A DNA stretch of 62,755 bases from Campylobacterales bacterium (GTDB taxonomy: Bacteria; Campylobacterota; Campylobacteria; Campylobacterales; QNZT01), in NCBI GenBank assembly GCA_027068765.1, contig JAMOMC010000112.1, positions 1 through 62,755 on the forward strand. The letters are read 5' to 3'. Of this stretch, positions 35,112-40,293 are shown in pieces (the stretch's first letter is position 1; the number at the start of each line of letters is the position of its first letter). Both the position numbers and the translations under genes were made by a program. The notes under the pieces are model-generated. The model made no database searches and was not told the origin of the DNA. It saw only the letters and a list, made by a program, of their open reading frames with translations.

Positions 35112-36752
35112 TTATTGTAAATGAGCTTTGTTTTGATATATTTTAGGGATTAAACTTCTATATGTAGAAAATTGTGCTGCATACTTGGCTTGTTGTTGGC
35201 GTTGAGATTTGACTATATCAAAATTAAGATCTTTTACAATCTCAACAATATCAAGATTGGGCTCAATCTCTAATTCAGATGCAACTTCATATACCATCAT
35301 ACGGATATTATCACTTGAAAAACCCTCTGTGTATTTGACAAGTTCTTGTCTTTTTTTATATTTTTTTATATCTATACCTTTGCTTTGAAACATTAACTCG
35401 ATAAATGAGCTTCTCTCATCTTTGTTAAGGTCAAAAATTGGTAATTTTATCTCAATTCGACGTTGAAAGTCTACTGGAAACATTTGTGGTCTTGATGTAT
35501 TAAAAATCCAAAATACTCTCCCTCTATCGCTATTATCTGCCATCCAATCAAGAAATATTGCTGTTAGTTCTTGATCTGTTTGATGTGCCTGTTTTGCTTG
35601 TGGATCTGGAAAAAGTTTATCAGCTTCGGATTTAAAGATGGCGATTTTGTTAAAAGATTTAGCTACCATTTTAATTTTTTCTAAAATTACAGCAGTCTCT
35701 CCATACCATTTTGATTTAATAGTTTGAAGTTTCATAATGGGAATTCCAGCTTCATATAAAAAAGCTTCTGTTTGAAAATCTTTACCAGTACCAGTTGCTC
35801 CAATATAAGCTATAGCTCTCCAAGGATTTTTACTATTCATTCTTTTTATTAAAGTGCGGGCTTTAGCTTTTAAATCTTCATATCCTATCACTTGTTCAAA
35901 TCCATAAGTAGGATGTAGTACCTTCACATGGCTTCCAAGGCTTTTTTCAATAATCTTAGCTACCTCATTTTTTATATGTGCTGTAATTCTTTTAGGCTCT
36001 TGTTTTAAAATAGATTGAAGTGTTACAAGTGTTATGCCAGCACTAAGTGCTGCAATCTCTTTTATCTGTTCATCTTTAATACCTTTATCATAAATAGCAT
36101 TTTCATAAGATATAAAAGCAACTCTTGTCTCTTCATCTGGCAGTGGTACTTCTATTTGATATAGTCCCATTATCGCTCTAACACCTTGTGAAATTGCTAA
36201 AAAGCTCTCTGATAATAGTATTACAGAGTCACTAGAGTTTGTAAACTCTCCGCTACCTAGCATCTCTCTTGCTAAAGATAAAATAAGTCTTTCATCATTA
36301 CTCATATGCTCAACTGGTTTATTTGGAAAAACAATATCAGCATCATCAATTAAAACTACTAAGTTTTTTAACTCTGTATCTTTATATTTTTTTCGCATTT
36401 CTCTATATGAGGAGAGTAGAACTTTTATCATATGAAGTCCAGATAAAATATCATATTTTGTATGTGCATAGTCCAATGAAAAAGCTTTTTGGTGAATCTC
36501 TTTTAGAGTAGGGTCAATTGAATAAAACTCATCTAAATCTCTTTTATCTGTATATTTTATACCAACAGAGGGGCTAAAGTAGAGAAGATGATTATTTTTT
36601 TGTAGTTTTTCAATGAGAATCTCTTCAATCTGTTTTACATTTTGTCTATTTTTCTCTTTATATATTGCAATATCATTAATATTTCCAGTTACTGCAAATA
36701 GATTTGTAGCCACACTTTTATATGCATAGGCGATCTCATTATATAGTTTCAT
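35112..36752 (-). CDS. Two-module AAA+ ATPase (degenerate N-terminal module + Vps4/CDC48-like module)
   Basis: N-module GNIND / VVLIDDAD; C-module GATGTGKD, pore loop SKWYGET, IAIFKSEAD, NTSRPQMFPVDFQRRIE. Confidence 0.8.
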   Translation of the reverse strand: MKLYNEIAYAYKSVATNLFAVTGNINDIAIYKEKNRQNVKQIEEILIEKLQKNNHLLYFSPSVGIKYTDKRDLDEFYSIDPTLKEIHQKAFSLDYAHTKYDILSGLHMIKVLLSSYREMRKKYKDTELKNLVVLIDDADIVFPNKPVEHMSNDERLILSLAREMLGSGEFTNSSDSVILLSESFLAISQGVRAIMGLYQIEVPLPDEETRVAFISYENAIYDKGIKDEQIKEIAALSAGITLVTLQSILKQEPKRITAHIKNEVAKIIEKSLGSHVKVLHPTYGFEQVIGYEDLKAKARTLIKRMNSKNPWRAIAYIGATGTGKDFQTEAFLYEAGIPIMKLQTIKSKWYGETAVILEKIKMVAKSFNKIAIFKSEADKLFPDPQAKQAHQTDQELTAIFLDWMADNSDRGRVFWIFNTSRPQMFPVDFQRRIEIKLPIFDLNKDERSSFIELMFQSKGIDIKKYKKRQELVKYTEGFSSDNIRMMVYEVASELEIEPNLDIVEIVKDLNFDIVKSQRQQQAKYAAQFSTYRSLIPKIYQNKAHLQ

Positions 36753-37665
36753 TTACATTCTCCAAGTTGTTTTGTTGTCGTGCATCTGGGTGTTCGAGTG
36801 AGAAATTTTTCTCATCTTGTCTAAATTTAGGGTTAAAACACTCATGTTTTACTCTCTCAATCCATTTTATTGTAAAAGGTGATTTGATTCTCTCATTCAT
36901 TGAAATATTTTGACCATTTAGAGGGTGTGCAGAGTCAAATGCAATTTTAGCTCCACTTTGATTACCATCATAGTGAGGAGTTAATGCTAATAATCTTGTT
37001 GCCAATGCAGGAACATCTCCATCTAAATCATGTGTGACAAATATAATAGTTAAGTTATTTTTCTCTTTAAGTTCTATTAAGTTTTTTCGCATAGCCATTT
37101 TAGTCTCTGGGTCAAGTGCAGAGAAAGCTTCATCCATTAATAATACAGAAGGCTTTAGTGCTAAAGCCGAAGCAATTGCAACTCTTTGTTTTTGTCCACC
37201 TGAGAGTTGATGAGGATATTTAAGTGCATGTTCATCCATCTCAACAAGCTTTAAATTTTGTATAGCTATTTTTTCAAGACTTTTCATAAAAGGTGTTTTG
37301 ATTTTAAATAATTTTAATATATCATACATAAGATTTTTCATAAAACTGCACTGGTCAAGATATAACCCTTGGGTAACATTTCCAACTGCTGTATAGTTTG
37401 GAAAAAGTGAATAGTTTTGTGCTATAAATCCCATATGGCGATTTGGGCCTCTCACTTTTTGATTTTTGACATTTATGATACCACGACTTGGAAGCTCTTC
37501 TCCCAATATTTGACGAAGTAGTGTTGATTTGCCTGCTCCTGATGGACCAACAAAACAGACTATCTCTCCTTGTCGAATACTTAAATTTACCGATTTTAAA
37601 ACATGATGTTTTCCATATGAAACATCTAGATTATCTATTTGAATAAGGTAATTATCATTTTTCAT
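36739..37665 (-). CDS. ABC transporter ATP-binding subunit, NitT/TauT family
   Basis: GPSGAGKST, YPHQLSGGQKQR, LLMDEAFSALD, VTHD. Confidence 0.93.
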   Translation of the reverse strand: MKNDNYLIQIDNLDVSYGKHHVLKSVNLSIRQGEIVCFVGPSGAGKSTLLRQILGEELPSRGIINVKNQKVRGPNRHMGFIAQNYSLFPNYTAVGNVTQGLYLDQCSFMKNLMYDILKLFKIKTPFMKSLEKIAIQNLKLVEMDEHALKYPHQLSGGQKQRVAIASALALKPSVLLMDEAFSALDPETKMAMRKNLIELKEKNNLTIIFVTHDLDGDVPALATRLLALTPHYDGNQSGAKIAFDSAHPLNGQNISMNERIKSPFTIKWIERVKHECFNPKFRQDEKNFSLEHPDARQQNNLENVNETI

Positions 37666-38483
37666 TATTTACTTCCTAAATACCACGGGTATCGTTTTTT
37701 TATAATAAACTCTATTGAGAAGAAAATTGTCATAGCAATAATGGTAATTAATATAATGTATGGAAATATAATATCATTTGCTGAAAATCGTTTTAAAATA
37801 AAAATACGAGTACCTAAACCATATTGAGCACCAAGTGTCTCTCCATAAAGTAATGCAAACCATACAAGAGGCAGGTTTATCTTTAATGATTGTAAAATGC
37901 TTGGCATTATTATGTATAAGTTTTCTCGTCCTATTTCCCACTCACTTGCACCTTTTGTAAATAGTAGAGTGTTTAGATTTCGAGGTATTTTTTTTATCTG
38001 ATTTACAATATCTTTAACTAGTACAAAAAACAGTGCTAAAAAGATAAAAAGTATACTAAGCTCATATCCAGGGTCTGCTATTAAAAATAGTATAGGCACA
38101 ATAGCGGCAGGAGGTACGGAACTAAAAACATTAACTATCGGCATTAAACTTGCATTGATAAACGGAAAAGTTCCTGCTAACACTCCTATACAAAGTGCAA
38201 AGATAAAAGCTAAAGAGATTCCTGCAAATAGTGAGCCCATAGAGGCTTTAATATCTTCTACAAATTGATTTGTGCCACTTCGTTTATCGATTTTAATTAC
38301 AAAAGTTGACATTGAGTCATACATTTTTGATATGCTAGGAAGTACCTTATCTCTAGGATTTTCTAAAAGACGCTCTTTTGAGAAGTGGTCATATATAAAA
38401 AATGCCATTAAAAATGGTAAAAAACCCAACACTAACCGCCCCCAAAGAGGTACTTTGGCACGGTTTCCAAACTTAAATCGCAT
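37665..38483 (-). CDS. ABC transporter permease, NitT/TauT (SsuC/TauC-like)
   Basis: Six TM helices, VPPAAIVP, degenerate EAA loop (TKGASEWEI), GETLGAQYGLG. Confidence 0.88.
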   Translation of the reverse strand: MRFKFGNRAKVPLWGRLVLGFLPFLMAFFIYDHFSKERLLENPRDKVLPSISKMYDSMSTFVIKIDKRSGTNQFVEDIKASMGSLFAGISLAFIFALCIGVLAGTFPFINASLMPIVNVFSSVPPAAIVPILFLIADPGYELSILFIFLALFFVLVKDIVNQIKKIPRNLNTLLFTKGASEWEIGRENLYIIMPSILQSLKINLPLVWFALLYGETLGAQYGLGTRIFILKRFSANDIIFPYIILITIIAMTIFFSIEFIIKKRYPWYLGSK

Positions 38484-39480: not shown

Positions 39481-39498
39481 TTTTTTTCCTTTAATTAA

Positions 39499-40293
39499 TT
39501 AAATATTTCGTTCTGTTTTTACTGCTATTTTACTTCCACTACCAGCCTCTTTGGCTTTTTTGGAAGCTGCTCTTTTGGCTAAAATTTCTTGTAATTTTGC
39601 ACTACTTTGTGCTGCTTGACCTTTTGCTTTATATCTTTGCATTCTTTTATCTGTATCTGCACCAGAAGCTCTTGAGAGTGTTTTTGCTGTAGCTCTTTTT
39701 TTGTTAATAGACTCACGAATAGCATCAACACCTGAACGGTCAATAGATTTTTTAAGACCCATCTCCTCTTTGGCAAGATTTGCCTCAAGTGTTGCAAGTG
39801 CCAAGTCTGATACAGACTCCTCTTCTTCTCTTTTTAAATCTGTAATTTCATCTTTGATTTTATTTAGCATCATCTGCTTATCTTCGAGATTGTTTTCCAT
39901 TTCAGCAATCTCATTAATAAGACTCTCTTGCTCTTTATCAATCTCCTCTTGTCTAGAATCTAAGCGATTAAAATCCTCTACAGCTTGCATGTCATCTGGA
40001 CTGTTTTGCACAATTGTGATAATTCCTTCAAGTGAGTGTTGAAGCTCTATTTCCTCTTTATTAAGTTTTTCTAAGAGTTGCTCTTTTTGTGCTTTAATAT
40101 TTTCAATACCAGCTACACCACTAACAACTTGCTCAAATTGTTCAACTAATTGATCACGAAGTTCTGAGTATCCAGCTCTAACTCCATCCTCACTTCCTGT
40201 ATATACTCCATCTGCAACACGATTTGCTTTGTATTGTCCTAATGTAATAATTGCCATAAAAATACGACCAATTGCACTTAATAATTTACCCAT
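39499..40293 (-). CDS. PspA/IM30 (ESCRT-III-like) helical-hairpin protein
   Basis: 264 aa, essentially all heptad coiled coil; N-terminal amphipathic helix MGKLLSAIGRIFMAII; PspA-like layout ending LQEILAKR. Confidence 0.6.
   Translation of the reverse strand: MGKLLSAIGRIFMAIITLGQYKANRVADGVYTGSEDGVRAGYSELRDQLVEQFEQVVSGVAGIENIKAQKEQLLEKLNKEEIELQHSLEGIITIVQNSPDDMQAVEDFNRLDSRQEEIDKEQESLINEIAEMENNLEDKQMMLNKIKDEITDLKREEEESVSDLALATLEANLAKEEMGLKKSIDRSGVDAIRESINKKRATAKTLSRASGADTDKRMQRYKAKGQAAQSSAKLQEILAKRAASKKAKEAGSGSKIAVKTERNI

Follow-up and report, generated by a model that had tools for sequence, protein, structure and literature searches.

The stretch of DNA analysed here, referred to as the window, is a contig of 62,755 nucleotides (JAMOMC010000112.1, assembly GCA_027068765.1) from a Campylobacterales bacterium of the GTDB group QNZT01. 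Its minus strand carries, at 35112..45136, nine open reading frames (ORFs) in head-to-tail order, which, judging from the ORF list and the inspected junctions, form a single, partly overlapping operon, with overlaps of 1 to 14 nt at several gene junctions and an even GC content of 0.30-0.33 across the region. Two products of this operon are of particular interest: a 264-aa protein encoded by gene 5 (39499-40293) and a 546-aa ATPase encoded by gene 9 (35112-36752). An initial annotation, made from the nucleotide letters, described them as a PspA/ESCRT-III-like protein paired with a Vps4-like ATPase. Both ORFs are found at these coordinates on the minus strand, but they do not form a pair. Both belong to the same conserved nine-gene operon, in which three genes of an ATP-binding cassette (ABC) transporter (genes 6 to 8) intervene between them. 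Directly upstream of gene 5 lies gene 4, which encodes a membrane protein with two hydrophobic helices; the overlap between its stop codon and the gene 5 start amounts to 8 nt, and a purine-rich stretch immediately precedes this start. Genes 1 to 3, at the head of the operon, encode predicted periplasmic proteins.

The relationship of the 264-aa protein to PspA becomes apparent at the level of protein families. A HMMER search with a profile of 11 close homologues (alignment A1) against 1.84 billion representative sequences returned 117 proteins at E <= 0.001, nearly all of them 250-290 aa long. Ninety-nine of these were scanned against Pfam (the 18 omitted were P0003, which is already part of A1, fourteen fragments shorter than 215 aa, and three rows with partial matches): 19 match PF04012 (PspA_IM30) at E <= 0.01, two of them above the curated cut-off, and no other Pfam family recurs among the 99. 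The A1 profile retrieves no PspA from the PDB. A profile of the wide family (60 sequences, alignment A2), by comparison, places Vipp1/PspA chains in rows 1-7 and 9 (best E 1.5e-6), with a colinear alignment of profile positions 47-239 to Vipp1 residues 35-213 and a high HMMER bias term (25 of 30 bits). Profile-profile comparison by hhalign with four Pfam-verified PspAs (A8), two of which (P0128 and P0130) had themselves been recovered with the A1 profile, gave a probability of 96.9% for A1 (E 2e-10, 217 columns, residues 2-244 against 1-223) and 99.8% for A2 (E 9.5e-28). In a language-model atlas, the nearest clusters are automatically named PspA/IM30 (score 0.94), and 13 of 30 carry PF04012. 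From these profiles we place the 264-aa protein, strongly diverged as it is, in the PspA/IM30 lineage and hence, as the initial annotation had it, in the ESCRT-III superfamily. The placement holds at the level of family profiles: a search with the single sequence of 39499..40293 gives no match, but the wide-family profile does find Vipp1 and PspA, and it is the sequence profiles, not the fold alone, that support it. Anywhere in the window's own genome, which is 99.98% complete, PF04012 has no match above the cut-off.

The AlphaFold2 model of the 264-aa protein (mean predicted local distance difference test, pLDDT, 74) consists of a helix at residues 2-21, a long hairpin, two more helices and a tail that is basic and modelled with low confidence. 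The first helix (40231..40290), which corresponds to helix alpha-0, is hydrophobic and amphipathic: it is modelled at low pLDDT, but the hydrophobic moment of the first 18 residues is about 0.5 and the helix is conserved in 11 sequences, so that the N-terminal amphipathic helix noted earlier is also predicted here. The hairpin spans residues 35-184 (39742..40191; arms 35-97 and 102-184) and is modelled with pLDDT 88-97 over residues 41-160, exceeding 90 for the greater part of its length. Structure searches give a mixed picture of the fold. With Foldseek, the nine best rows are all Vipp1/PspA (E 0.016-0.076), but in VIA-align the hairpin alone reaches Z 11.5 with Vipp1 (133 aligned residues, root-mean-square deviation 3.4) compared to up to Z 12.8 (Smc) for unrelated coiled coils, i.e., a tie with generic folds of this kind. 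At the other end of the protein, the flexible charged tail that had been described is recovered as a low-confidence, basic and low-complexity stretch at residues 244-264 (39502..39564), which ends in ERNI. Across the family, this end takes the form of an Arg, 0-3 residues and a hydrophobic C-terminus (ERNI here, often ERPKI elsewhere) that follows a low-complexity linker. The motif is present in 42 of the 60 A2 members and in 61 of 111 full-length relatives, compared to 23 of 351 unrelated ORFs from the loci (about 7%). The Arg-x-hydrophobic tail might be regarded as a candidate recognition signal for the ATPase.

The ATPase itself is built of two AAA modules. Its C-terminal module (residues 271-546; 35112..35942) is a classical AAA domain of the active type, with a PF00004 match at residues 317-437 (E 1.1e-12). 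The N-terminal 270 residues (35943..36752) have no Pfam match, but profile comparison and hhalign identify them as a degenerate classical AAA domain: they align with the protein's own active module (hhalign 96.7%, E 4e-10), and their family profile matches p97, Cdc48, PAN, CdvC, and spastin (best E 3.6e-8). At the place of the P-loop, the 22 homologues share an invariant G23-N24-x-x-D27 and have no Walker A lysine. As a single sequence, the ATPase matches VAT (5.4e-13), Afg2 (8.8e-10), Msp1/ATAD1 (1.4e-9), spastin (1.9e-8), and katanin in the PDB, with Vps4B (4.5e-7) ranking lower. The family profile of the active module finds Afg2, Cdc48 and VAT as best matches (E 2e-57 to 1e-54); its best 60 rows, a ranking in which chains with two modules gain score from two matches, comprise Afg2, Cdc48/p97, VAT, NVL, NSF, Rix7, and FtsH, and no Vps4 chain is among them. 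The score in the NCBIfam CDC48 model is 36.7 bits, compared to a cut-off of 802. Pfam scans of the ATPase detect no MIT family either, residues 1-270 being the degenerate AAA domain instead. With two AAA modules, no MIT domain and best matches to Afg2, Cdc48, and VAT, the protein is a Cdc48-like tandem classical AAA ATPase and not an orthologue of Vps4, and the description as Vps4-like is thus not sustained.

The motifs that had led to this description are real. Pore loop 1, SKWYGE (residues 347-352; 35697..35714), and the arginine-finger region, FQRRIE (residues 429-434; 35451..35468), are present, and none of the 22 homologues departs from W349, G351, R431, and R432. Since an aromatic pore loop and paired arginine fingers are common to the whole classical clade, they do not discriminate Vps4 from its relatives. 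The initial annotation had also pointed to the missing PG of CDC48/FtsH. This PG is truly absent, but its absence reflects a two-residue deletion private to the clade of the window's protein and is uninformative as to descent from Vps4: R-x-[GE]-R is kept at this site by each of the 17 more distant proteins of the ATPase family (14 metagenome loci and the proteins P0036-P0038), in seven of them with a preceding Pro. The clade in question consists of 23 rows, namely the window, three further loci that carry the same genes (L002, L003 and L004), and 19 proteins from databases with identities as low as 41%, among which P0012 is the window's protein and P0025 that of L004.

The same clade differs from the rest of the family in its active site. 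Walker A reads GATGTGKD (residues 318-325; 35778..35801), with Asp in place of Thr/Ser; this GK-D is found in 23 of 23 clade rows, compared to GKT in all 16 readable distant members. In the Walker B region, IAIFKSEAD (residues 370-378; 35619..35645), the Asp that precedes the catalytic Glu is replaced by Ser, and by Pro or Thr in relatives ([KR][SPT]E in 23 of 23), while Glu376 is invariant; all 17 distant members have D-E. At sensor-1, all 23 clade rows have Ser at the position that aligns with the Asn of P0037 and P0038. The Walker A change is never seen without the Walker B change or vice versa (both in 23 of 23 rows of the clade, compared to 0 of 16-17 outside), and the two accompany the deletion near the arginine fingers. 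Because this coupling is strict, and Lys324, Glu376 and both arginines are kept, the two changes might represent a compensated rewiring of Mg coordination. The invariance of K324, E376, R431, R432, W349, and G351 in 22 sequences argues for a working motor. To our knowledge, there is no described precedent among AAA proteins for the combination of a Walker A Asp with a lost Walker B Asp. The clade is split off by a branch with 100/100 support, its stem measures approximately 3.2 changes per column in a quick tree, and with the root placed at the midpoint it lies closest to L005, L006 (two of the distant metagenome loci), and P0036.

The operon is conserved as a unit. The three loci L002-L004 were found among 185,579 species genomes and belong to two metagenome-assembled genomes labelled Sulfurimonadaceae and one labelled 'bacterium'. 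They contain the same nine genes in the same order, including overlaps of starts and stops. Seven of the genes are 60-79% identical to those of the window; identity is lowest for the two-helix membrane protein (42-49%) and for the von Willebrand factor A (vWA) protein of gene 2 (49-54%). Of the window ORFs of at least 110 aa between 28 and 50 kb, only the nine cassette genes match L002-L004 in tblastn, hence the flanks differ between these loci and the window. The distribution is narrow: among 401 sampled Campylobacterota genomes, the PspA-like profile matches a single one, that of the window. The N-terminal module of the ATPase has a strong match only there as well (2.5e-95), while the 15 other hits are partial matches of at most 1e-7 strength to other AAA proteins. 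Since strong matches are confined to one of 401 genomes, the cassette looks like a unit that was acquired by a single lineage. Near-identical DNA is present in hydrothermal-vent metagenome runs; among the sequencing runs with such DNA, no RNA run is listed.

A link between PspA and this type of ATPase recurs outside the clade. A metagenome scan with the ATPase alignment yielded 14 distant loci with 23-29% identity, three of which have a gene of the PspA family beside the ATPase. In L006, a PspA of the same subfamily as the window's is located directly upstream of the ATPase (A2 profile E 1e-44; PF04012 7.9e-7). In L014, a PF04012 gene (1e-32) is followed by a 280-aa protein and then the ATPase, and in L017, a binding protein precedes a PF04012 gene (3.8e-10), a 274-aa protein, and the ATPase. 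Between the 280- and 274-aa proteins, blastp detects a relationship (8.5e-7), and both appear, by reading of the sequences, to consist of a hydrophobic start followed by helical sequence, of which a hydropathy scan flags one segment in L014 and none in L017. Their layout resembles that of gene 4 of the window, and homology to gene 4 was not detected (hhalign 0.5%). From these three data points only, the pairing with PspA tracks the tree of the ATPases: the clade of the window is nearest to the group of L006, and L014 and L017 lie in the other half and carry canonical PspA. The PspA-family proteins of L006, L014, and L017 end differently from the window's.

Other branches of the ATPase family have other neighbours. 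In L005 (2425-11871), a homologue without PspA is located among nucleotide-related genes, including a cpYpsA SLOG domain with a kinase-like P-loop, CinA, a PNK/HAD-like protein, and a nucleoside 2-deoxyribosyltransferase-like protein, so that this ATPase family seems to be put to another use there. In L007 (11464-11862) and L010 (3233-3640), which represent another branch, a gene for a FlK-type thioesterase directly follows the ATPase.

Taken together, the homology of the parts, the structure of the operon, its conservation as a unit, and the repeated linkage of PspA and AAA genes in distant lineages lead us to favour, with somewhat more confidence than doubt, the view that the nine genes form a discrete envelope cassette, in which a PspA-like polymer is remodelled by a dedicated tandem AAA ATPase in a cycle comparable to that of ESCRT-III and Vps4. 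The PspA-like protein, the two-helix membrane protein, and the tandem ATPase would make up its cytoplasmic core. We infer that the PspA-like protein would bind membranes and polymerise, that the ATPase would hydrolyse ATP, and that the former would be the substrate of the latter. More specifically, the PspA-like protein could use helix alpha-0 to attach to the membrane's inner face and polymerise there, possibly nucleated by the two-helix membrane protein encoded by gene 4. A hexamer of the ATPase would then engage the flexible C-terminal tail and pull subunits out of the polymer through its Trp-Tyr pore loop, and their extraction would recycle or remodel the polymer, as Vps4 does for ESCRT-III. 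A functional analogue of the ESCRT-III/Vps4 cycle is plausible. A more far-reaching version would see a complete bacterial counterpart of the ESCRT-III/Vps4 system that arose from a Cdc48-like tandem ATPase, with the tail as a signal for docking or threading in the role of the MIT-interacting motif, the degenerate first module in the role of MIT, i.e., as receptor of the tail, and a motor that works with a rewired Mg site. We put this version forward tentatively, and consider it considerably less likely than a cycle of the general kind.

Several observations weigh against these proposals. A predicted complex of the ATPase and the PspA-like protein scored 0.00 in two runs for which controls were not folded, which is no evidence either way; the central step, in which the ATPase would act on the PspA-like polymer, accordingly stays a proposal. 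ATPase activity cannot be taken for granted, given three departures in the active site (Asp for the Walker A Thr, Ser, Pro or Thr for the Walker B Asp, and Ser at the aligned sensor-1 position). In 11 of the 14 distant ATPase loci, there is no PspA gene beside the ATPase. Six of these are shorter than 4.5 kb, and some of them may be cut, but L005, L007, L010, L013, and L015 have room for such a gene and yet have other neighbours, so that the bond between this ATPase family and PspA is not universal. Concerning the parts, the 264-aa protein alone has no match in Pfam, NCBIfam or the PDB; its hairpin is inseparable from the coiled coils of Smc, PI3K-iSH2, and chemoreceptors in VIA-align; and for gene 4 no link emerged to Snf7, to PspA or to its analogues in L014 and L017.

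Some of these observations would be expected if the ATPase acted on a different substrate, such as the two-helix membrane protein, the ABC importer, or secreted or tethered proteins that stall at the membrane, as in extraction or quality control, while the PspA-like protein merely stabilised the stressed membrane or regulated the ATPase in the way PspA restrains PspF. Three transporter genes do separate the PspA-like gene from that of the ATPase, the five distant loci with sufficient room have the ATPase and no PspA, the membrane-protein extractase Msp1/ATAD1 is among the best PDB matches of the single sequence (E 1.4e-9), and the regulation of PspF by PspA provides a precedent, as outlined in a recent review (PMC7619361). 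This scenario does not readily explain why the linkage of PspA and ATPase recurs with two subfamilies of PspA and tracks the tree of the ATPases, nor why the PspA-like proteins expose a conserved C-terminal motif of the kind recognised by unfoldases in 42 of 60 members, compared to a background of about 7%. We therefore regard a different substrate as possible but distinctly less probable than remodelling of a PspA-like polymer.

Two further alternatives concern the integrity of the individual components. The ATPase module could be catalytically crippled in the clade of the window and serve as a nucleotide-binding scaffold or switch instead of an unfoldase. The loss of the Walker B Asp, the replacement of the Walker A Thr, and the Ser at sensor-1 in all 23 clade rows would fit such a role, as would the very long stem branch noted above. 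However, no variation is seen in the Walker A Lys, the catalytic Glu, the two arginine fingers or the aromatic pore loop, and the changes at the Mg site are coupled (23 of 23 rows, compared to 0 of 16-17 outside), a pattern that points to compensation and not to decay, so that a crippled module appears improbable to us. Even more remote is the notion that the 264-aa protein is a generic coiled coil, whose likeness to PspA stems from its composition. Neither the single sequence nor, for the PDB, the profile of its close family retrieves a match in Pfam, NCBIfam or the PDB, the match of the wide family carries a high bias (25 of 30 bits), and the hairpin fold is generic; set against this are an alignment to PspA/Vipp1 that is colinear over nearly the full length (217 columns, residues 2-244 against 1-223), PF04012 as the sole Pfam family that recurs among the relatives, and the PspA/IM30 clusters as neighbours in the language-model search. 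Composition as the source of the likeness hence seems very improbable.

The type of operon and the analogy to ESCRT-III/Vps4 are already published as an in silico prediction (Ravi et al., 2024, mSystems; PMC11237479). In that study, bacterial PspA is reported to occur occasionally with a protein of two AAA+ domains, the N-terminal copy of which is inactive; PspA, a Snf7 homologue with a transmembrane (TM) segment, and the AAA protein are also described in longer operons alongside an ABC ATPase as well as a permease and a PBPB-OmpA protein, for which ATP-dependent membrane remodelling comparable to that by Snf7/Vps4 is suggested (Ravi et al., 2024). The cassette of the window corresponds to this description in its PspA homologue, its two-module AAA protein with an inactive N-terminal copy, its membrane-anchored helical protein, its ABC ATPase and permease, and its solute-binding/OmpA-type proteins, as well as in the proposed role. 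It differs in its vWA gene and in a second fusion of a binding protein with an OmpA-like domain, neither of which is mentioned in the operon description given there. Moreover, no Snf7 signal was detected for the membrane partner in the window, its PspA lies beyond detection by Pfam, and its ATPase belongs to a clade in which the Mg site is altered and the arginine-finger loop shortened (compare Ravi et al., 2024).

Compared to the Vps4/CdvC and ESCRT-III systems of archaea and eukaryotes, the cassette likewise combines a flexible-tailed protein of the ESCRT-III superfamily with a classical AAA ATPase in one operon, and the ATPase shares the aromatic pore loop and two adjacent arginine fingers. 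In contrast to Vps4, it has no MIT domain, has two AAA modules instead of one, and has Afg2, Cdc48, and VAT as its nearest solved relatives. With Cdc48/p97/VAT it shares the tandem of two classical AAA modules, and both modules have their best sequence matches there, but it is much shorter (546 aa), has no P-loop lysine in the first module, and leaves no room for an N-terminal substrate-recognition domain, as the degenerate first module starts at approximately residue 17. The PspA-PspF system also ties a protein of the PspA family to an AAA+ protein. PspF, however, is an NtrC-type activator with a DNA-binding domain, according to Ravi et al. (2024; PMC11237479), whereas the ATPase of the window is a classical tandem AAA protein with a substrate pore loop, and the operon contains no gene for PspB or PspC.

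A 2025 review states that a Vps4-like ATPase for PspA/Vipp1 polymers appears to be absent in bacteria (PMC7619361), and systems of Vps4 and ESCRT-III are described as confined to archaea and eukaryotes by Makarova et al. (2024), where Vps4 is derived from Cdc48 by loss of one ATPase module. Among the titles and abstracts returned by a full-text literature search, no experimental study of a tandem AAA protein dedicated to PspA was found. A PspA that is wired to a Cdc48-like ATPase with a dead first module is what a bacterial parallel to the transition from Cdc48 to Vps4 would be expected to look like, and the cassette also offers a testable answer to the question of how PspA-type polymers are disassembled. 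What the window adds is a compact member of low GC content from a hydrothermal-vent-type lineage, an unusual and apparently compensated ATPase active site, and a candidate recognition motif on the tail of PspA, which could serve as an experimental handle.

Gene 4 (40286..41104), the putative membrane partner, encodes 272 aa, which, according to alignment and model, comprise two hydrophobic helices and a predicted cytoplasmic helical domain of approximately 200 aa. The helices are located at about residues 23-42 and 46-69, the second ending in an invariant SYWWHWF; a hydropathy scan with a window of 19 residues flagged no segment. It is the fastest-evolving gene of the cassette (42-49% identity in L002-L004). 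There is no match in Pfam (E up to 1) and no sequence match in the PDB; the predicted model (pLDDT 73) gives a best E of 0.17 and no Snf7 signal in Foldseek, and the best 50 rows of VIA-align contain generic helical bundles only (up to Z 12.0) and no ESCRT-III protein. A profile link is absent both to the wide PspA-like family A2 and to the analogous proteins of L014 and L017 (hhalign 0.5%). A language-model search points to the Rv2743c family at 0.85, a sub-threshold lead only.

The intervening genes 6 to 8 encode the ABC importer. Gene 6 (38494..39480, 328 aa) is predicted to be the periplasmic substrate-binding protein of an ABC importer of the NMT1/SsuA type (NMT1 E 5.7e-5), with a match to TIGR03427 (E 8e-39) that lies below the cut-off of this NCBIfam model. 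Gene 7 (37665..38483, 272 aa) encodes the permease (BPD_transp_1 E 1.3e-12), with a TauC-like NCBIfam match (E 6.6e-17), likewise below the model's cut-off, and gene 8 (36739..37665, 308 aa) the transporter ATPase (ABC_tran E 1.5e-31). Gene 8 shares 1 nt with gene 7 and 14 nt with gene 9. While the matches to ABC_tran and BPD_transp_1 are clear, those to binding-protein domains are weak to moderate throughout the cassette.

At the head of the operon, gene 1 (43331..45136, an ORF of 601 aa) combines a periplasmic binding-protein-like domain (NMT1_2 E 0.018 in Pfam for the N-terminal part) with an OmpA-like C-terminus, for which the evidence is sub-threshold (OmpA E 0.0023 for the whole protein; E 4.6e-4 and 20.9 bits for the C-terminal part, compared to a cut-off of 27.2). 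Its true start is probably the Met at residue 38 (around 45025), because a signal-peptide-like stretch begins there and the resulting length of about 564 aa is that of the homologues in L002-L004, to which it is 64-70% identical. Gene 2 (42685..43371) encodes a secreted vWA-domain protein (VWA PF00092 E 5e-12) with a DxSxS motif (metal ion-dependent adhesion site, MIDAS) at residues 49-53; identity to its L002-L004 homologues is 49-54%. Since its signal-peptide-like N-terminus contains no Cys, it is not a lipoprotein here and is probably either soluble in the periplasm or tethered there by other means. Gene 3 (41114..42688, 524 aa) encodes a second fusion, consisting of an N-terminally anchored binding protein of the NMT1/SsuA type (NMT1_2 E 8.5e-5; SsuA_fam E 3.9e-8) and an OmpA-like C-terminus, the last 130 aa of which match OmpA with E 0.0011 and 19.7 bits, again below the cut-off of 27.2. 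The three periplasmic proteins, i.e., two fusions of binding-protein and OmpA-like domains and the vWA protein, probably tie the system to the cell wall.

The window as a whole has no Rfam match. Neither promoter-like sites (63, compared to 51.3 +/- 7.0 in shuffled sequences) nor terminators (5, compared to 4.3 +/- 2.1) are enriched in the scans for them. Downstream of the ATPase gene, at a distance of 22 nt, an ORF of 118 aa follows on the minus strand (34733-35089), with a histidine-triad-like motif near its C-terminus by reading alone. It is absent from the flanks of L002-L004 and hence not part of the cassette. The next ORF, of 201 aa on the plus strand (34131-34736), has a lipoprotein-type N-terminus and appears, by reading without a search, to encode a CAP/SCP-like secreted protein. 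At its other end, a plus-strand ORF (45131-46159), pheS-like by reading of the sequence alone, runs divergently to the operon. In the short stretch that the two share (45131-45169), upstream of the operon, lies the region's highest-scoring promoter-like site on the minus strand (45169-45141, 10 of 12 positions).

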